Virus record (IMG/VR): IMGVR_UViG_3300013105_000004
Coordinates: 13,973-77,972 of that record
From: a virus
Lineage: Duplodnaviria > Heunggongvirae > Uroviricota > Caudoviricetes
DNA: 64,000 nucleotides
Strand: one strand, 5' to 3'
The notes beneath the pieces are model-generated. The model was given only the letters and a program-made list of their open reading frames with translations. It was not told the origin of the DNA and did no database searches. Shown here piece after piece: positions 3,942 to 53,212 of this stretch. Made by a program: the position numbers and the translations under genes. Positions within the stretch are counted from its first letter, which is position 1. Each line of letters begins with the position of its first letter.

Positions 3942-4142
3942 ATGGCCCAAACCAAGGAGAAATACGAATACGAGGCTCACACCTTCGACCTCCGGGTCGG
4001 AGGGAAGCAATGGTGTACTGGCTGTGGACTCGTCGGCCTGAACAACCCGTTCACCGACTGGGCCGTACGTATGGGTTGCAACCATCGGCTCCATCCCTCG
4101 TACGATAACAAACGCTACGAGCTTACCAAACTTTTCGATTGA
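3942..4142 (+). CDS. hypothetical Cys-containing small protein (CxxC)
   Basis: RBS CCAAGGAGAAATACG... ; CTGCG motif. Confidence 0.5.
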   Translation: MAQTKEKYEYEAHTFDLRVGGKQWCTGCGLVGLNNPFTDWAVRMGCNHRLHPSYDNKRYELTKLFD

Positions 4143-4339
4143 AAGGAAAACATGCTAGCTTCCCTATTGGCTCGCCTCCGCGAGCTTTTCAGGAACGACA
4201 GGATGCCGCCTACCGGCATGGCTCCCGCTTGAGTCCGCTCAAAACGTTCCGGCCCAATGGGCATAACATTCCTCTTGCCCGTCTCCATCCGGGTGTTCCA
4301 TCCGGGGCTCACGCCGACCTCGTACCGATGGAACCTTTC

Positions 4340-4366
4340 GCCCCGCCTCGTGTGGGGCTTTTTATT
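4340..4366 (+). terminator. Rho-independent terminator (GCCCC-loop-GGGGC + TTTTTATT)
   Basis: GC hairpin followed by T-run ~200 nt downstream of last + strand early gene. Confidence 0.6.
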
Positions 4367-4382
4367 GCCCGAAACAATCGTA

Positions 4383-4412
4383 ACTCCTTGATTTTACTAA
4401 AAAAATTTTTAG
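4383..4412. other. AT-rich tract (ttttactaaaaaaatttttagaaat)
   Basis: sharp local AT enrichment adjacent to palindrome array; possible DNA unwinding element. Confidence 0.35.
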
Positions 4413-4659
4413 AAATACGGCCTCTTCCGCAACGTCCATCGCCAATGGCGAAAATTTATCACGCCAATACGGCAACTTTTTCAAGCTTTCTCCTATGAAA
4501 CACGTTCTCGAAGATATGCTCGAAAAGGGTAAAAACCTCGGAGGGCGAGGGGATGGCTTAACCCGTCGCCGGGGGCGTGTTTTGGGGTCTGGAACGCACC
4601 AGAAATATCACAGAGGGGCCGTCAGGGGTCGGACAGGGGAAATGCCATCGGCACAGAGA

Positions 4660-5605
4660 ACGGCGCTATGGCCCCTCTAAACGCGTCTATGGGCCTGTGT
4701 ATAAAACCTAGAGGAACGTCTGGTCTGTGGACATCCGCCATACCAATGTGGACAACTTTCTAGGCCATTGGCCCGTGCATGCGCCTACGGCTTGCGTACA
4801 GGCCCGTAGAGGGCCGAACGATGTCCCGTTGATGTCCGCACTAGGGCACGATCTGTAAACGCCTCATAGCTCGTTTAAACGATTATAGTTCTGGCCTATG
4901 GCCTAGTGCCAGTCGATAGGGTTTGGCTGGGGCCAATGGCCCATGTATGCAATTTCCGTGCCAAGAAAGAGCGTTTCAATGTGCCGGGGCTAAACAACCC
5001 CGCCGCCCGTCTGTCATTGGATACACATATGAGCATGTCTAGTGCCATAGGCACAGGTTATTATGTACCTGCCCTATGGGCATGGCGTATGCCATAACCT
5101 ATGGCTATGTGCTATTAATTCGCCGTAGGCGATAGTATTTCTGTATGAGGGGATGATATAGGGATGATGAATAGATAGGACTAGGGCCAATGGCCTAGCC
5201 GTATAAGGGGCCAATGGCCCATGTTTGACCCCGTTCAAGGGGTCAAGGGGAGGGAAGAGGGACGAGGGGCCATAGGCCCATGAGATATGTTCTGTGCCTA
5301 TGGCACTAGAGTATGTTGATAACCGTTGCGAATAACAGCCCTGTATGTACGAATGAATAGAGGCGTTTAGAGGCGTTTAAACGGGCTCGCCTATGCCAGC
5401 GTACCAGCGTGATAGCGTTCGTTGAATGTAGGCCCGTTCTGATGCGTCCTAGGGCCATTGGCCCATGTAGCGCTACGTACCATATGCGGATGGGCCTTGC
5501 AGACAGGGCTGTATGAGGGGTCAAGTACCAGTACGTGAGTCATCAAGTATTGACTAAAAGAAATGGCCCGGTACAGCTTACGCCGTCCGGGCCTTTGGCC
5601 TATTC
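4660..5605. repeat. array of ~12 GGCC-(A/T)3-GGCC palindromic sites (e.g. GGGGCCAATGGCCCATG x2 identical 17-mers at 4928 and 5207)
   Basis: copies at ~4760, 4814, 4896, 4930, 5056, 5091, 5190, 5207, 5265, 5298, 5450, 5590; both orientations. Confidence 0.7.
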
Positions 5606-5974
5606 GCCTATTTCCAGTTCCACCAAATCCGGGATGTTCACCCAAAGCATGCCGGAACGATCGTTATCGTAAATCCGCATACCTGCATTAGTAGCATCAA
5701 TGAGCATAACGTTAGAAGCGTGGACGGTGTAATCCTGGCCGTTCTGGTGCGTGTACGTGTATTCGGCCGTGACGGGGGCTGCATCCTCACGCGTAATCGT
5801 GATGTCCGTAATTTCCGATAAAAGCGGACCATGCACGATATTATCGTTAGCCGTGAATACGATTCGCTTTCCGCCAGCCGGGTACGGCGTTAGATGAATC
5901 TTTTCAACGTTGCTTACTTTGACGCTGAAAAGGAGCCCGGTATAGCGGCATTTAAAGCCGTAGTCGATTTTCAT
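5600..5974 (-). CDS. hypothetical protein (124 aa)
   Basis: ATG at 5974 with RBS AAAGGAAA; ORF track uses upstream TTG. Confidence 0.55.
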   Translation of the reverse strand: MKIDYGFKCRYTGLLFSVKVSNVEKIHLTPYPAGGKRIVFTANDNIVHGPLLSEITDITITREDAAPVTAEYTYTHQNGQDYTVHASNVMLIDATNAGMRIYDNDRSGMLWVNIPDLVELEIGE

Positions 5975-8262: not shown

Positions 8263-8748
8263 TTATCGGTCGTAGAAATAATAACCGTCGTTTTCAAAGA
8301 ATCCGGACATTAGCAATTCTCTTGAGTAGTGTTCCCAGTCGATATAAGAAAACATAGGGTGATTATCATCAATCATTCCGGAATCAACTGCGTATTCCAT
8401 ACCGAAGTCACTAGGCGAATCATACTTACCACGAAACGCATCACGGGCCGTCTCGAAATCCGCATCACCACAGTTGCCGATATACGCCGCCCACATTTCC
8501 CGGTCTGATTCGTCCAATGCGGCAAGCTCGAAAACCTTTTCGTCAATCGATGATTCGGAAATCAAATCGTTTGGAATGTCTTCCCAATCTTGAAACATGA
8601 ATTCCGGATCGCTTTCCATCGCATGCAATTCCTTGCATGCATCGTAGAATTCGTCTCTATCGGCGTAATCTTCAATGTCCAGCCATGCACCGTAAAGATT
8701 GCCGCTATTGTATTTGCCGTACGTGCCGACATAAACGCGCATAGTCAT
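8263..8748 (-). CDS. ardA: ArdA-like anti-restriction protein
   Basis: N-terminus VYVGTYGKYNSGNLYGAWLD.. resembles ArdA VYIANLGKYNEGELVGAWF; acidic DNA-mimic-like composition. Confidence 0.65.
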   Translation of the reverse strand: MTMRVYVGTYGKYNSGNLYGAWLDIEDYADRDEFYDACKELHAMESDPEFMFQDWEDIPNDLISESSIDEKVFELAALDESDREMWAAYIGNCGDADFETARDAFRGKYDSPSDFGMEYAVDSGMIDDNHPMFSYIDWEHYSRELLMSGFFENDGYYFYDR

Positions 8749-9113: not shown

Positions 9114-9409
9114 TATTTCACCTTAATTTCAAACTCAAAATGAGTCACTTGTTTAATCGTGATGCCGTAACGCGTCAGGAACGCACCGTAGGCGCTTGCA
9201 AGCGTTTGCCATGCGTCCGCATCGTCCGACATCCCCAAAAGCTCTAGGCGCTTATCTATCGCTTTCTCGTACGTGTCCGCGATGTTATCCGGCGTGACGC
9301 CAAAATCCGTTTGTTGAAATTCGCCCATAACGCGAATGATGAAAGACGATTTGCCATGCTTTCGAAAATACATTCCGATTGGCGAACCGTCATTGTTTAA
9401 TAACTTCAT
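9113..9409 (-). CDS. hypothetical protein (98 aa)
   Basis: ORF, coupled to upstream gene. Confidence 0.5.
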   Translation of the reverse strand: MKLLNNDGSPIGMYFRKHGKSSFIIRVMGEFQQTDFGVTPDNIADTYEKAIDKRLELLGMSDDADAWQTLASAYGAFLTRYGITIKQVTHFEFEIKVK

Positions 9410-16140: not shown

Positions 16141-16840
16141 GATGTAGTTCCTTATAAGGGTTTGCCCTGAAGGGCTTGGTGAACACAAGGTTTAACTGTT
16201 GCTTGCGTCCGTTGTTGCAGTGGACAGATCGAAGTTTATACCTAGTGAGGAAGATTGCAAGGGGTGAAATCAATCGTACAGCCAGTTTTTGATAAAAATA
16301 TGATAACAACGTTGTGACGATACAACAGAACACAAAAATAAAGTTTGGTTCACACCCACGTAACACTTCCTTCGTCCTATCTGTCCTACGTCGCGTAGGT
16401 TCGCTCCTACAAATCAACGAGTTACGTAAGAAACGAGGTAGCACTACTTGCATATCGATATGACAGGAGCATTACATATTTACTATCTTTGTTACGTAAA
16501 GATGGATATGCGTACAGTATTTTCAATCGTGCGGCATGCAGGACGCCACGGTTTCGTGTAAAGTGAGAAGTGGGTGGAAGATTACCTGTACTCAGAAACA
16601 CGGATTTTCTGCTTAAAAGTTGTTCAAAAAGCTAGGAAATTTAAGGTTTCCTAGCTGCTGCATTGTCTAAACGGAGGAAAACTAGCGAATACGTAGTGAA
16701 AAGACAACATTGCTTATAACATTTCTTATGAGAAACATCATAGGGGAGGGAGTTGCTTTACCTAAACATTTGATGTATTGGTAGCAACTCCTATGTAGTT
16801 GTTGATGTCAGTAGAGCTACCTATATATAAGAAAGAAGTA

Positions 16841-16920
16841 AAATTTTCCCCATCCCCTACAGAAATCGGGTATTTTGATTTCCATATTGGATTTCGAAAA
16901 TCGTCCGGAGACGAAAATAA
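16841..16920. repeat. ~80-bp direct repeat copy B
   Basis: matches 14001-14080. Confidence 0.7.
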
Positions 16921-16963
16921 GTAGCACTACCTACTTGACACCGGAAAAAATTTCACGGAAAAT
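16921..16963 (+). promoter_or_regulatory. promoter-like: GTAGCACTAC motif + TTGACA (16935-16940), 17-nt spacer, weak -10 GAAAAT
   Basis: architecture shared with other + strand promoters. Confidence 0.45.
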
Positions 16964-20651: not shown

Positions 20652-21119
20652 ATGCGACGGTTGCTTAGTGTGGTAGTGCTATGTACATCATTGGTCACGA
20701 ACACGCTGGCAACCCCGCCGCACATCCCGGTGGCGAAAGCCATCACACGAGAGGACATCTGCATGGCATGGGTCATCAATGACGAAGCCCGTGGTGAACC
20801 GCTACGGGGCCAGCGTGCCGTGTACGATGTCGTCAAGCACAGGATGGAAATACGTAAGCTTACAGCTTGCGAGGTAGTGAAGGAACCTTACCAGTTCTCT
20901 GGCTACCATCGCGGCATGAGGTTGACAGCGACCGAAGAGATGTTGCAACGCTTGTCGAAAGTGCGTAGAATAGCACCTGTAGCTGGTAACGCTACGTACT
21001 TTCATAGCAACAAAGTACACCCATCTTGGGCGTCCAAGATGAAACGAATTCTAACCATCGGAAAGCATGCTTTTTTCGAATTAAAGGAGGAACGTGGGCA
21101 CACGAGAGCTAAAAAGTGA
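20652..21119 (+). CDS. secreted SleB-like cell-wall hydrolase
   Basis: signal peptide; NDEARGEPLRGQRAVYDVVKHR ... QFSGYH resembles Hydrolase_2/SleB domain. Confidence 0.6.
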   Translation: MRRLLSVVVLCTSLVTNTLATPPHIPVAKAITREDICMAWVINDEARGEPLRGQRAVYDVVKHRMEIRKLTACEVVKEPYQFSGYHRGMRLTATEEMLQRLSKVRRIAPVAGNATYFHSNKVHPSWASKMKRILTIGKHAFFELKEERGHTRAKK

Positions 21120-21693
21120 GGACTTTAATACGATCCTCTACTATGATGAAGCCAGCAAGTCCTGCCTTAGATGGTCAGTTGATCGACCATTTGGCAACGG
21201 AATGTTTAATGCCCGTGCTGGGGATGATGCTGGGAATTACGACGAGGGAGCAGGGTATTACAAACTGACGCTAAATGGTATTACCTATCAAGCTCACAGG
21301 ATCGTCTATTGCCTGCTGAACGGTAGTGTGCCTGCTGACGCTAAGGTAGACCACGAAGACGGCAACGGAGCTAACAACAGAGGTAGCAATCTTCGTATTG
21401 TTACTACCGCAGTGAATTGCCGGAACTCGAAAGCGAGGCGTAACAACTCGTCAGGCATTCATGGCGTAGGGCGATATACACCGAAAGCGGGAAGCCCATA
21501 CTGGATAGCTCAGTGGCTAGACCTCGAAGGTAAGCACAAAAGTAAAACGTTCTCAATATCAAAATACGGCGAAGGTGAGGCAAAACGCCTCGCCATCGAT
21601 TCTAGAACAAAAGCCATAGCGCAACTCAATTCAGAAGGCGCTGGCTATACAGAAAGGCATGGCACATGCTTAAAGCACGACTCATCGCAGTAA
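21094..21693 (+). CDS. HNH homing endonuclease with AP2-type DNA-binding domain
   Basis: HRIVYCLLNG...VDHEDGNGANNRGSNLR (HNH) + SGIHGVGRY..YWIAQW (AP2); GTG start with RBS AAGGAGG. Confidence 0.7.
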   Translation: MGTRELKSEDFNTILYYDEASKSCLRWSVDRPFGNGMFNARAGDDAGNYDEGAGYYKLTLNGITYQAHRIVYCLLNGSVPADAKVDHEDGNGANNRGSNLRIVTTAVNCRNSKARRNNSSGIHGVGRYTPKAGSPYWIAQWLDLEGKHKSKTFSISKYGEGEAKRLAIDSRTKAIAQLNSEGAGYTERHGTCLKHDSSQ

Positions 21694-24171: not shown

Positions 24172-25242
24172 ATGAGCAAAGCAACCAACCCAATCACGTC
24201 GAAATTCAAATGCTCGTTCATCCGTGTGGCGAACGTCTCCGAGTACGTTGCAGCGCAAAAGCTGATGTACAAGCTGGGCTTCCGGAAGGCTCGTGGCGGT
24301 GATCGTGAAGTGGACAACTCGGACGACATCCGGTTCATCTACGTCAACCTCTACAACCAGATGTTCCTGTATCCGTCGGTGGCGAAGGGCAACAAGTGGC
24401 GGGAGACGACGTTCGAAGAACTGAGCAAGGCCGTCGCGGCGTACTCCGCCGCTCGTAAAGAAGAAAACAAGGCTTCCAAGAAACGCCGTGCTCTGCGCAA
24501 GTGGGATGCCACGGCTACCAAGAAGACGCACGACGGTTGCCCGGTCGATCCGGAAGTTATCGTCGCCATCAAGATGCGTGACGGTGAGGTCTGGACGGAA
24601 CGCGCAGGCAACGTCTACTGGGGTGAAACCGGCAATGGTACGATTGTCAGCTACAAGGTGCTGGGCTATCCGAAGCCCAAACGCGAGTCGAAAATCGTCA
24701 CGCAGGAAGAGATGGTGGATGCACTGGCTGACAGCATCGGCAAACCACTGGCAATCCCAGTGTCCGCCATGTCGTCCGGTGAAAAATTCATGCATATGTG
24801 TGCGGAAATCGACGCAGGCACTCCGGGCACGAACCCGAAGAAGCAGTACGGTGTTCAGTCTGTCCCGCTGAATATGTGGAGCCCGCTGGCATCCGCGTAC
24901 GGTGCACTCGGCCTGTACAACGGCTCGCTGAAGTACGGCAAGGCCAACTTCGCCAACACTCCGGTGGAAGCGTCGATCTACATCGCTGCTGCAATGCGTC
25001 ACTTGCTGGCGTGGGCATGCGGACAGGAAGACGATCCGGCTGACGGTGTGCCGAATCTGGGTGGCGTGCTGGCGAACGTGGCAATCCTGCTGGAAGCTCG
25101 TGCTGCTGGTATGCTGATCGATGACCGGCTCCGTATGTCGGGCTACCTGAAGGAGCTGGACATGCTGAAGGCGAAGGTGAAAGCCCTCAACGAGCTGCAT
25201 GCGGGCAAGACACCGAAGCATTACACGCTGGATCAGGAATGA
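24172..25242 (+). CDS. hypothetical protein (356 aa)
   Basis: leader CTAACCAAGCC..CAAACCAAGGAGAAATTATG. Confidence 0.6.
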   Translation: MSKATNPITSKFKCSFIRVANVSEYVAAQKLMYKLGFRKARGGDREVDNSDDIRFIYVNLYNQMFLYPSVAKGNKWRETTFEELSKAVAAYSAARKEENKASKKRRALRKWDATATKKTHDGCPVDPEVIVAIKMRDGEVWTERAGNVYWGETGNGTIVSYKVLGYPKPKRESKIVTQEEMVDALADSIGKPLAIPVSAMSSGEKFMHMCAEIDAGTPGTNPKKQYGVQSVPLNMWSPLASAYGALGLYNGSLKYGKANFANTPVEASIYIAAAMRHLLAWACGQEDDPADGVPNLGGVLANVAILLEARAAGMLIDDRLRMSGYLKELDMLKAKVKALNELHAGKTPKHYTLDQE

Positions 25243-34709: not shown

Positions 34710-34785
34710 GGGTCGTTAGCTCAGTGGATAGAGCACGGGACTTCTACTCCTGCTGTCGTAGGTTTGAATCCTACACGACCTACCA
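34710..34785 (+). tRNA. tRNA-Arg (anticodon UCU)
   Basis: cloverleaf: acceptor GGGTCGT/ACGACCT, D-arm GCTC-AGTGGATA-GAGC, anticodon stem CGGGA/TCCTG loop CTTCTAC, T-arm GTAGG-TTTGAAT-CCTAC, encoded CCA. Confidence 0.85.
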
Positions 34786-50371: not shown

Positions 50372-50941
50372 ATGAACGAGATTTTTGAGTACGATGAAAC
50401 AAGCCCTTCGGGGATGAGATGGAAGGTCGATAGATATACAGGCCACTCCAAGACACGAAAGCACATATCCGCTGGGGACGTAGCCGGACACTGGAGCAAG
50501 GCAGGTTACTGGACCGTTAACGTCAACAACAAAGCCTACTATGTACATCGTGTTATCATGGAACTGCATGGTTACGACATAGAAGGCCTTGAGGTTGACC
50601 ATCGTGACAAGAACAGATCGAATAACAAGCTAAGTAATCTTCGTGTCGTACCTAGAGTGCTTAACTCCCGGAACATAACGATGAGGGATGATAATTCGAG
50701 TGGGGTGACTGGTGTTGTATGGCAAGAATCAAAGTACAGCACAGTAGCTACTGCTTGCTGGCAAGAAGCTGGACGACAGAGCCGGAAGAGTTTTTCAGTC
50801 GGCAAGTACGGGCTGCTAGGGGCATTTGCCAAGGCGGTCCAGTTTAGAAAAGAAACCATCCAGAGGCTAAACACCGAAGGATACGACTACACGGAAGGAC
50901 ACGGAAATGGCGCTACGGATCGAGAGCGGGGACTTGTTTAA
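50372..50941 (+). CDS. HNH homing endonuclease with AP2 domain (paralog of 21094..21693)
   Basis: HRVIMELHGY..VDHRDKNRSNNKLSNLR + SGVTGVVWQ..ATACWQ. Confidence 0.7.
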   Translation: MNEIFEYDETSPSGMRWKVDRYTGHSKTRKHISAGDVAGHWSKAGYWTVNVNNKAYYVHRVIMELHGYDIEGLEVDHRDKNRSNNKLSNLRVVPRVLNSRNITMRDDNSSGVTGVVWQESKYSTVATACWQEAGRQSRKSFSVGKYGLLGAFAKAVQFRKETIQRLNTEGYDYTEGHGNGATDRERGLV

Positions 50942-52702: not shown

Positions 52703-53212
52703 TTACTCGTATTTACCAGACCTAAACGTGGACGGCTCTGATTCAAGGTAAGCTAAAGCCTTTTTCAGTCCCTCCACGTTATCTCCTAGCGATCCTATTC
52801 CTGTGTTGCAATTGGTACAGAGAATCCCTCTCACATATCCCGTGACATGGCAATGATCTACGTTAGCCGTTGTCCGCGTCAACTCCGTACTGCATACCTT
52901 ACACTTCCCGCCTTGACTTGCCAGCATTCCCTCTACGTCCGTAAGAGTCATTCCATACTTCGTCTGGTACGTATTGTCCGCCTGTTTCAAAGCGTCTCGC
53001 TTACGTTTGGCTCCATCTGACCTTCTAGCTTCGTAGTACTTGGCAGACTTTTCTGGATTATCTTTGCGGTACTTCGCAGAGTACACTTTCATCTGCTCTT
53101 TGTACTCTGGATGTGCTCGCCTAAACTCTCTTGCGTAACAGGATGAGCACATTCCTTTAGCGAAGTGCTTCTTCTCAGGGTGGCAAGTAGCTGCCTTTAC
53201 TGGCCTACTCAT
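52703..53212 (-). CDS. endonuclease VII-like Holliday junction resolvase (HNH-type)
   Basis: CKVC...VDHCHVTGYVRGILCTNCNTGIG matches T4 endo VII motif. Confidence 0.75.
   Translation of the reverse strand: MSRPVKAATCHPEKKHFAKGMCSSCYAREFRRAHPEYKEQMKVYSAKYRKDNPEKSAKYYEARRSDGAKRKRDALKQADNTYQTKYGMTLTDVEGMLASQGGKCKVCSTELTRTTANVDHCHVTGYVRGILCTNCNTGIGSLGDNVEGLKKALAYLESEPSTFRSGKYE

Follow-up and report, generated by a model that had tools for sequence, protein, structure and literature searches.

The 64,000-nucleotide stretch of DNA analyzed here (the window) is a part of the IMG/VR virus record IMGVR_UViG_3300013105_000004, which represents an uncultured phage of the class Caudoviricetes. It contains a gene-free element of ~1.19 kb (about 4367–5558 in window coordinates), which is occupied by a dense array of short palindromes. 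This element is probably a single copy of the direct terminal repeat (DTR) of the phage, collapsed during assembly. Four observations lead to this interpretation: the architecture of the region, the hairpin signature, the kinship of the large terminase, and the coincidence of comparable hairpin clusters with the mapped DTRs of two relatives, PaP1 (Pakpunavirus) and PAK_P3 (Nankokuvirus). An earlier note on this DNA had suggested an initiator iteron field, a ParB-type centromere, or an operator field. A collapsed terminal repeat in a "circular" assembly was not among its options, and is the one that appears best supported by the comparison with PaP1 and PAK_P3.

A Gene-Free Element at a Convergent Junction

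The gene-free span of the window is 4234–5599, which harbors neither a gene nor, according to a tRNA scan, a tRNA. The earlier note had placed the limits of the region at 4383–5605; its non-coding nature holds, and the true gene-free span is slightly wider. The automatic gene caller placed zero genes within the element. The 1,491 nt of 4109–5599 lack any open reading frame (ORF) of at least 70 amino acids (aa) and constitute the largest ORF-free gap of the window. In the whole genome, the element is the sole large span free of both genes and tRNAs; the other ORF-poor stretch is a cluster of 14 tRNAs.

On the left flank, plus-strand genes enter the element, the last ones being 3942–4142 and a small ORF of 26 aa at 4153–4233 (MLASLLARLRELFRNDRMPPTGMAPA). 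On the right flank, minus-strand genes enter it, starting with the gene at 5600–5974. Both flanking gene blocks point inward and each is closed by a terminator, which makes the junction convergent, not divergent. This contradicts the earlier proposal of a divergent early-promoter region. The left insulator is an intrinsic terminator on the plus strand (4340–4366), in which GCCCCGCCTCGTGTGGGGC is followed by a T run. It ends rightward transcription and is conserved in four of the relatives described below (L001, L004, L006, and L003). The right insulator is the terminator of the leftward block (5550–5593, minus strand), GGCCCGG-15 nt-CCGGGCC followed by ATTTCTTTT on the minus strand. It was missed by the scan tool because its loop is longer than 8 nt, and it takes a textbook bidirectional form in L002 and L003. 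The distance between the two terminators (about 4367–5558, ~1.19 kb) defines the core of the element and the putative extent of the collapsed DTR copy. Since two transcription units converge and each is stopped by its own terminator, the repeat is expected to be untranscribed. A scan of the element for sigma-70 promoters found none.

An Array of Short Palindromes

The general form of the sites is a perfect palindrome, NNNCC-N3-GGNNN, and their core consensus is G-N-G-C-C-A-W-T-G-G-C-N-C. The exact motif GGCCWWWGGCC is present eight times, at 4763, 4893, 4931, 5185, 5209, 5268, 5453, and 5590, all inside the region. The expectation is 0.05, and none of 100 shuffles reached eight. Less strict definitions give the same picture. 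[GT]GCC-N3-GGC[AC] is found at 11 sites in the region versus three in the rest of the window, and perfect NNCC-N3-GGNN (stem of at least 4 bp, spacer of 3 nt) at 16 sites in 4252–5600 versus 11 in the other 62.6 kb. Palindromes with a stem of at least 5 bp and a 3-nt spacer number 10, compared with 1.3 in dinucleotide shuffles (maximum 5). The cluster of ~12 palindromes reported earlier is thus real, and the count is fair for a loosened motif, although the exact GGCCWWWGGCC accounts for only eight and the class with stems of at least 4 bp for 16.

The stems are exactly 5 bp long, with A/T-rich sequence on either side. Most centers (A-W-T) give a 13-bp perfect double-strand palindrome. Spacer-1 palindromes are also enriched, because the AAT and ATT centers extend the palindrome. 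The spacing of the sites is irregular, from 24 to about 280 bp, and the only direct-repeat families of the element are the palindromes themselves. The two identical 17-mers of the earlier note, GGGGCCAATGGCCCATG at 4929 and 5207, were found again, as were its short direct repeats, GAGGCGTTTA at 5360/5370 and GGGATGAT at 5150/5161.

Conservation and Covariation in Relatives

Seven contigs of uncultured phages, found via the proteins flanking the element, contain a syntenic gene-free element (L001, L002, L003, L004, L006, L065, and L083). The element is alignable in L001, L004, L006, and L065, and recognizable in L003, L002, and L083. All seven elements contain a palindrome cluster of the same kind. 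The 1.2-kb non-coding stretch is more conserved in sequence than the flanking proteins. These relatives support the earlier view that the region is a conserved cis-acting non-coding DNA element; conservation was the check that the note itself had proposed, and the palindromes are retained in the syntenic elements. The conserved blocks outside the hairpins are TTGATTTT with an A run and a T run at the left edge, CAGAAATATCA, CTGTGTATAAAA, and AAGAAAGA.

The positions of the hairpins are constant while both arms change, for example from GGCC..GGCC to GTGCC..GGCAC. In the five-genome alignment, double changes are seen in 14 pairs versus 5.6 in shuffles (0 of 500), and 83.6% of cells are paired versus 27–42% for slid-partner controls, the structure having been taken from the window sequence, which favors the real pairing over the slid controls. 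Among the CCNNNGG cores of all eight elements, 115 of 151 have at least two further complementary pairs, compared with 22 under the null (maximum 38 in 5000 permutations). The arms of these eight elements represent 25 different types. The conserved trait is self-complementarity with CC/GG closing pairs, not one half-site sequence.

The loops are strand-symmetric: AAT and ATT are seen 21 times each, and TAT and ATA 22 and 18 times. Stem changes are mostly double with few G-U intermediates, and plus-strand wobbles are not in excess (5 GT versus 12 AC). Folding of both strands as single-stranded DNA is far better than that of shuffles (z = −4.1 and −5.4). Palindromes with 3-nt spacers are enriched 7–10 fold in all five elements tested (the window, L001, L002, L003, and L006) and in PAK_P3. 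Taken together, the positional retention, the covariation, the diversity of arms, the symmetric loops, and the folding of single strands indicate a strand-neutral potential for hairpins or cruciforms rather than an RNA or a dimer operator. These facts point to palindromes that work at the DNA level via self-pairing, and not through a fixed protein half-site or one-strand RNA.

Beyond these contigs, nucleotide searches of 50,697 phage records with the element, its left flank, and a 23-kb stretch returned no match, and neither did tblastn with a neighboring 276-aa protein against the same records. An exact-sequence look-up of the 276-aa protein returned no record, and the exact 17-mer had no match in IMG/VR. 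In IMG/VR, the pattern AGAAATATCA-N78-92-CTGTGTATAA retrieved the known relatives again and two chance matches. A metagenome scan with this pattern gave 41 matches, all of which were discarded as chance, being without BLAST similarity or hairpin clusters. The earlier note had named a mobile repeat of the host as a result that would speak against it. The 18-mer GGGGCCAATGGCCCATGT was single-copy in seven unrelated genomes among 185,579 and multicopy in none, and seven is within a rough chance estimate of about 17. The array is thus not a host repeat family, and a repetitive extragenic palindrome (REP)-like origin in the host was rejected.

Hairpin Clusters at the Mapped Termini of Relatives

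In PaP1, run-off sequencing gave a terminal redundancy of 1,190 bp, which includes g156/g157 (Lu et al. 2013, PMC3652863). The inclusion of these two genes places it at the coordinates 90,526–91,715. The 1.5-kb window of the PaP1 genome richest in hairpins with a stem of at least 5 bp and a 3-nt loop is 90,001–91,500, with 13 hairpins versus a genome mean of 2.0. The DTR of phage C11 is 1,173 bp (PMC5175280). For PAK_P3 (NC_022970), PhageTerm and capsid Hi-C assigned T7-like DTR termini "around 63 kb", in a sequence free of genes and transcription (Sci Adv 2026, PMC13510664). This terminus is one anchor of an early 14-kb Hi-C loop, for which the authors propose an encapsidated nucleoid-like protein (PMC13510664). 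The peak hairpin cluster of PAK_P3 is at 62.4–63.5 kb, in the ORF-poor gap between gp112 and gp114 (13 versus a mean of 2.7 per 1.5 kb). The other gene-free loop anchor of PAK_P3 contains direct repeats without a hairpin array. By the same count, the top stretch of our window is 4.0–6.2 kb, with 10 hairpins. The coincidence of peak short-hairpin density with the repeat is an empirical signature from this analysis, not a textbook criterion.

The element resembles the PaP1 repeat in several respects. Its size of ~1.19 kb is close to 1,190 bp in PaP1 and 1,173 bp in C11, all at ~1.2 kb. The PaP1 repeat is also ORF-poor and coincides with the densest short-hairpin cluster of its genome. The leftward genes of PaP1 face its left end and the rightward genes its right end, so that the repeat in the circularized map lies at a convergent junction, as here. 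The two phages share Pol I, a gp4-like primase-helicase, RNA ligase, and NAMPT, and PaP1 is among the phages with the closest known large terminase. They differ in that there is no nucleotide similarity between the two repeats, the gene order around the repeat is not the same, and the ends have been mapped in PaP1 alone. The arms are GATAGC/GAAAGC in PaP1 and GGGCC/GTGCC here, and in PaP1 4-nt centers are commoner than 3-nt ones. The PaP1 repeat also contains an HNH endonuclease gene.

The ORF to the left of the L002 element (L002:10830–11200, minus strand) resembles, by eye only, this HNH endonuclease of PaP1, gp157 (L056:40879–41481), the shared motif being W..V....G...G..LD...L..G.K.Y.P..C.F.P. 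In vB_PseuGesM_254, a closer relative by Pol I, an endonuclease gene adjoins the repeat. Homing endonucleases may favor the repeat region.

The PAK_P3 terminus is a gene-free and untranscribed stretch of ~1.3 kb with 13 palindromes of a stem of at least 5 bp and a 3-nt loop, flanked by small early-type genes. CCCAT(T)GT comes after some of its hairpins, as it does in GGCCCATGT of the window. In contrast to the window, both flanks are transcribed in one direction and so do not converge, the arms read GGCTTC/GGCCTC, and a function as the anchor of the 14-kb early loop is known from Hi-C for PAK_P3. PAK_P3 also has direct repeats of ATTGTGTAAC, not seen in the window element: five direct and two inverted copies are present at 62.2–63.8 kb (L054:12200–13800). 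Several copies stand directly after a hairpin (..GGCCCATTGTGTAAC), which is reminiscent of GGCCCATGT.

The record of vB_PseuGesM_254 has a 628-bp repeat at both ends, which is ORF-free and corresponds to a convergent junction. Two other records were examined for their ends. The ends of the phiA047 record are an arbitrary circular cut and were set aside as uninformative on termini, and no repeat was seen at the ends of the Boevelstad record.

Genome Form and Terminase Kinship

The genome is ~90.7 kb and encodes Pol I, a gp4-like primase-helicase, DNA and RNA ligases, RtcB, RNR, and NAMPT. Two independent assemblies, Logan (90,744 bp) and MEGAHIT k141 (90,855 bp), both give a circle of 90,714 bp after subtraction of the end overlap. 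Such a circle arises when assemblers collapse two copies of a terminal repeat, or when a genome is permuted. The replication module is common with PaP1 and PAK_P3, at 30–55% aa identity, and the capsid protein, like that of PAK_P3, belongs to the Phage_cap_E type. The 14-tRNA cluster, located in the genome of a relative (L062:3914–7049, minus strand), lies directly upstream of the structural (head/terminase) module; the placement is similar in PaP1 and PAK_P3, where the terminase gene directly follows tRNAs.

The large terminase of the lineage (L069:12426–13910, on the contig of L001) was reached by walking related contigs and has the Terminase_6N/6C domains. Its best BLAST hits among the 50,697 phage records are the PAK_P1/P2/P4 and PaP1 group, at 41% identity and 98% coverage (E 3e-95). 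A tblastn search with the terminase, portal, capsid, sheath, and Gp160 of PaP1/PAK_P3 against the loci collected before that walk gave no match.

Features of the Element

An A+T-rich block, TTGATTTTACT-A7-T5-AGAAAT (4383–4416, 80% A+T), is conserved in every relative and occupies the left edge of the element. In it, TTGATTTT and the A run are invariant in six of six aligned sequences. Possible functions of this block are a boundary or cutting site, DNA bending, and DNA unwinding. A conserved promoter was rejected, as the −10 position varies among relatives. The earlier note saw here a 30-bp tract of A and T only, which does not exist as such: 4383–4412 is 80% A+T, and the longest pure A/T run is 14 nt (4398–4411).

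The hairpins follow to the right. TCGCC-aat-GGCGA (4439–4451) is present in four of five close relatives and in L003. TGCC-atc-GGCA (4643–4653, helix 3) shows double changes. GGCC-att-GGCC (4763–4773, helix 4) is GTGCC-att-GGCAC in relatives, a compensatory change of G:C to T:A. Helix 5 is GGCC-tat-GGCC (4893–4903). The first 17-mer copy contains GGGCC-aat-GGCCC (4930–4942, helix 6), which is GAGCC..GGCTC in L004, and the second copy contains the same hairpin at 5208–5220 (helix 11). Between them are TGCCC-tat-GGGCA (5070–5082, helix 8), GCCATA-acc-TATGGC with a 6-bp stem (5089–5103), TCGCC-gta-GGCGA (5120–5132, helix 9), and GGCC-aat-GGCC (5185–5195, helix 10). The last is extendable to CTA(G)GGCC..GGCCTAG, is 100% paired with three double changes, and has GTGCC or GAGCC arms in relatives. 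Further to the right, GACCCC-gttcaa-GGGGTC (5228–5245), with a 6-bp stem and a 6-nt loop, is retained by L001 and L004, while L006, L065, and L003 have variants of it. GGGCC-ata-GGCCC (5267–5279, helix 12) is 96% paired, and GGGCC-att-GGCCC (5452–5464) is helix 14. The palindrome at 5590–5600 overlaps the arm of the right terminator and a stop codon, and is the least conserved of the set.

Two of the hairpins belong to a perfect 19-nt inverted repeat. Its left arm, TCTAGTGCCATAGGCACAG (5038–5056), contains GTGCC-ata-GGCAC (5042–5054, helix 7), which is 100% paired in the alignment. Its right arm, CTGTGCCTATGGCACTAGA (5292–5310), contains GTGCC-tat-GGCAC (5294–5306, helix 13), which is invariant in five of five sequences. 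The arms are 100% complementary, bracket 273 bp of the element, and are both invariant or nearly so in close relatives. This inverted repeat dominates the predicted single-stranded DNA fold on both strands.

A G-rich purine tract on the plus strand (5239–5272) is purine-rich in all close relatives. It had been described as 30 nt of purines, which overstates it: these 34 nt are 85% purine, and the longest pure run is 18 nt (5245–5262). The tandem copies of GAGGCGTTTA (5360–5379, plus strand) have a complement-like partner, AAACGCGTCTA, at about 4680.

Four relatives have an additional module within the element, a sigma-70-type promoter close to consensus with a short repeat or hairpin after it (L004:7455–7560; L065, about 9150–9260; L003, about 9215–9130, minus strand; L002, about 10000–9930, minus strand). 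It consists of TTGACA or TTGACT, 17 nt, and TACCCT or TATGCT preceded by TG, and it is missing from the window, L001, and L006. The module could represent a gene for a small RNA, or a promoter that reads outward from within the repeat.

Proposed Role in Genome Packaging

If the element is a collapsed DTR, the packaged genome would be linear, with ~90.7 kb of unique sequence and a second copy of the ~1.2-kb repeat. The element would then be a cis-acting concatemer junction in packaging of the T7-like or PaP1-like type. After injection, the two copies of the repeat would recombine or anneal, generating circles or concatemers. Late in infection, the terminase would recognize the junction and cut at the boundaries of the repeat, which would be duplicated in processing to leave two copies per virion.

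The 15–16 short palindromes, with their 5-bp G+C-rich arms, CC/GG closing pairs, 3-nt A/T centers, and A/T-rich flanks, could be conserved structural signals. The mini-hairpins may form in the repeat when it is single-stranded, during end resection and annealing or during duplication by strand displacement, or in supercoiled DNA. Equally, a packaging or end-binding protein may use the palindromes as symmetric sites. The small terminase is one candidate, and a nucleoid-like protein that is encapsidated is another; an array bound by such a protein is possible within the DTR interpretation. The use of the same arms with 3- or 4-nt centers in PaP1 and the high diversity of arms here favor hairpins over a rigid dimer site. 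A role of the hairpins as structural or recognition signals in end processing is suggested only tentatively.

It can be speculated further, at rather low probability, that lineage-specific arrays of 5+3+5 mini-hairpins are a functional hallmark, a phage "telomere", of the terminal repeats in the supergroup of PaP1, PAK_P3, and this lineage. An encapsidated or early protein would bind them, protect the ends, pair the repeats for circularization, and anchor the early loop of PAK_P3. The conserved serine recombinase described below might then add site-specific cyclization in this lineage. A literature search found no description of dense covarying palindrome arrays marking these repeats. The terminal repeats of this supergroup were already known, and this phage would add an uncultured member; the palindrome array is a modest new observation.

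Several points weigh against the assignment as a DTR. It is made from assembled sequence, whereas the ends of PaP1 and PAK_P3 were mapped experimentally. The element has no sequence homology to the repeat of PaP1 or PAK_P3, so that the link to them consists of architecture and a shared statistical signature, and the small genes flanking the element are not common to these phages. A circular assembly would be equally expected for headful, permuted genomes. Both circular assemblies break elsewhere, and no contig of the lineage or of IMG/VR ends at the element. The terminase kinship comes from best BLAST hits at just 41% identity. The repeat of vB_PseuGesM_254 holds just three hairpins with a stem of at least 5 bp and a 3-nt loop. 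Seven of the 11 loop-3 hairpins within the PaP1 repeat lie in the HNH gene, and PaP1 prefers 4-nt spacers, indicating that the signature is not identical across lineages. The published DTR mappings of PaP1 (PMC3652863) and C11 (PMC5175280) do not mention hairpins.

Alternative Explanations

The density, the conservation, and the odd center of the palindromes would also suit sites of a dimeric DNA-binding protein with no relation to the ends, as in a ParB/parS-like centromere, an operator field, or a nuclease decoy. The arms favored in each lineage (GGGCC/GTGCC here, GGCTTC in PAK_P3, and GATAGC in PaP1) look as if a protein co-evolves with its sites, and the PAK_P3 locus is the early Hi-C loop anchor for which its authors propose a nucleoid-like protein. 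As that anchor is the terminus itself, it does not discriminate between such an array and a DTR. The gene tables contain no ParB, partition ATPase, or repressor gene; ParB and ParA are absent from the PHROGs, Pfam, and precomputed Pfam tables of the window genes, with ~17 kb outside the window only partly scanned. This agrees with the earlier remark that the window has no obvious cognate binder, none having appeared in gene tables or family searches. A convergent, terminator-insulated junction has no promoters to operate. A dimer with a fixed half-site does not need arms that vary within one genome and stay self-complementary, and the 3- and 4-nt centers of PaP1 suit hairpins better than a rigid dimer. 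Such an array is considered improbable. Roughly the same small probability is given to a replication origin, in which the palindromes would be initiator-binding sites and the A+T-rich block the unwinding element, and which could coexist with a terminal repeat. The conserved A+T-rich block at one edge, the many repeated sites in a non-coding region, and the iteron-looking direct and inverted copies of ATTGTGTAAC in the PAK_P3 counterpart are in its favor, and the origins of phages with T7 gp4/Pol I-type replication genes are poorly known. Yet of the features of iteron origins (direct copies of 17–22 bp, an adjacent initiator gene, and an A+T-rich element), only the A+T-rich block is found. There is no initiator, Rep, or DnaA-like gene beside the element or in the gene tables of the window, and about 25 differing self-complementary arms are not phased direct iterons of one sequence. 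The functions proposed in the earlier note (iteron field, centromere, and operator field) are disfavored on these grounds. The cumulative GC skew has no turning point at 4.4–5.6 kb, and the coverage skew that was reported in PAK_P3 for one start site does not indicate this locus, which the authors call the terminus.

Transcription of the element into one or more structured noncoding RNAs, with the hairpins as RNA stem-loops, could account for the higher conservation of the element than of the flanking proteins, for the compensatory changes in 14 pairs, for the promoter module in four relatives, and for the terminator at the right end. The symmetry of the hairpins is unexpected for a one-strand RNA, since loops and their complements are equally frequent and most centers form perfect double-strand palindromes. 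The double stem changes with few G-U intermediates and the balance of wobbles (5 GT versus 12 AC) speak against RNA pairing as well. Terminators on both sides keep out read-through, and the conserved A+T-rich block has no conserved −10 element. In Rfam 15, only the tRNA at 34710 of the window matches at the gathering score, and the element has no match; at E ≤ 10, 4100–5750 gave chance-level matches only, centered on the left terminator. The PAK_P3 counterpart is reported to be untranscribed, and no noncoding RNA is annotated there. This explanation is very unlikely. Even less probable are target sites of a serine recombinase, which would either invert the 273-bp segment or, like Cre-lox in P1, cyclize a genome with terminal repeats. 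A gene of the resolvase/invertase family is present in all eight element-bearing genomes, at 61–100% identity to the copy of the L001 lineage; it is better conserved than the neighboring 276-aa protein, and PaP1 and PAK_P3 lack it. The perfect 19-nt inverted repeat, with its nearly invariant arms, and the promoter-like module lying between these arms in four relatives would fit an invertible segment. The bracketed segment, however, has the same orientation in all aligned relatives. In the Hin/Gin and resolvase families, serine-recombinase sites consist of half-sites of roughly 12 bp around an even core of 2 bp, and the 5+3+5 sites or the 19-nt inverted repeat do not have this canonical geometry. 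Fifteen sites far exceed the needs of res or hix. PaP1 and PAK_P3 have hairpin arrays without the recombinase, which indicates that the arrays are independent of it.

Comparison with Other Known Systems

The terminal repeat of T7 is a non-coding sequence of 160 bp at both genome ends with short internal repeats; the terminase cuts at its boundaries, and it is duplicated in processing. The concatemer-junction logic proposed for the collapsed DTR is the same, and PhageTerm classed the ends of PAK_P3 as "T7-like DTR". The element is ~8 times longer than the T7 repeat, and the terminase here belongs to the Terminase_6 family, unlike that of T7. The T7 repeat is not known to carry an array of 5+3+5 palindromes.

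Early promoters of phage N4, from the work of the Rothman-Denes laboratory, are reportedly hairpins with a stem of 5–7 bp and a 3-nt loop, extruded from supercoiled DNA and read by a virion RNA polymerase. The sites here are similar in the 5-bp G+C-rich stem and the 3-nt loop, and would be near a genome end if the DTR interpretation is right. Their loops are strand-symmetric and of A/T, not purine-centered, and the hairpins are not upstream of genes. No RNA polymerase domain or giant virion RNA polymerase is found in the gene tables and ORF lists of the window and most of the remaining genome. N4-like hairpin promoters were rejected, given that there is no such polymerase, the flanking genes point inward, and the PAK_P3 counterpart is untranscribed.

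Iteron origins and parS sites are likewise clusters of repeated sites resembling protein-binding sites in non-coding DNA, sometimes beside an A+T-rich tract. The element differs in its diverse self-complementary arms, its irregular spacing, and the lack of an initiator or ParB gene.

Neighboring Genes and Other Genes of the Phage

The 26-aa small ORF (4153–4233, plus strand) is the last coding sequence of the rightward block and forms the left border. It has a ribosome-binding site, was missed by the automatic gene caller, and is retained with synonymous changes in L001, L004, and L006. Directly left of the element, the 66-aa protein at 3942–4142 (plus strand) has a CxxC...CxH pattern and is 86–92% identical in relatives, and the genes neighboring it are less conserved in the same relatives. 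It has no family match and no similarity to Gp160 of PAK_P3, and a small DNA-binding protein is a speculation. The right border is the first gene of the leftward block (5600–5974, minus strand), which encodes 124 aa without a family match.

A small serine recombinase (Resolvase domain; PHROG "DNA invertase/integrase") lies just left of the window, its gene ending at about window position 24, ~4.4 kb left of the element. It corresponds to L085:1–83 and L062:9261–9974, and its conservation exceeds that of its neighbors. A serine recombinase is unexpected in a lytic-type genome with a terminase akin to those of DTR phages.

Among other genes of the window are an ArdA-type anti-restriction protein (8263–8748, minus strand), two HNH_3/AP2 homing endonucleases (21094–21693 and 50372–50941, both plus strand), and endonuclease VII, a junction- and cruciform-cutting enzyme (52703–53212, minus strand). 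A 356-aa protein (24172–25242, plus strand) has the N-terminal domain of dATP/dGTP diphosphohydrolase (PF18909, E 1e-16). This domain is linked to phages whose DNA carries modified purines; the Pfam tables showed no PurZ-like gene. The window holds one tRNA, tRNA-Arg(TCT), at 34710–34785. Its second ORF-poor stretch, 16454–16926, has the lowest G+C content (38%) and no palindrome cluster. In the phage as a whole, the largest proteins are a tape measure protein of 1826 aa, a DUF7359 protein of 1078 aa, and a Laminin_G_3 protein of 949 aa; its largest ORFs are those of tail proteins.

Implications

The physical ends of a phage can hide in a "circular" metagenomic genome. A palindrome field that resembles an iteron, centromere, or operator region can be a collapsed terminal repeat. 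In both relatives examined, PaP1 and PAK_P3, the mapped terminus is marked by an ORF-poor, hairpin-dense block. If this signature holds widely, the termini and the packaging mode of such genomes could be guessed from the sequence, and the genomes could be oriented. The Hi-C anchor of PAK_P3 at the same place adds interest to the array. Phages of the PaP1 and PAK_P3 types are candidates for therapy, and the events at their ends, namely circularization, formation of the early Hi-C loop, and duplication of the repeat, are poorly understood. The palindrome array supplies defined cis-elements for mutation.

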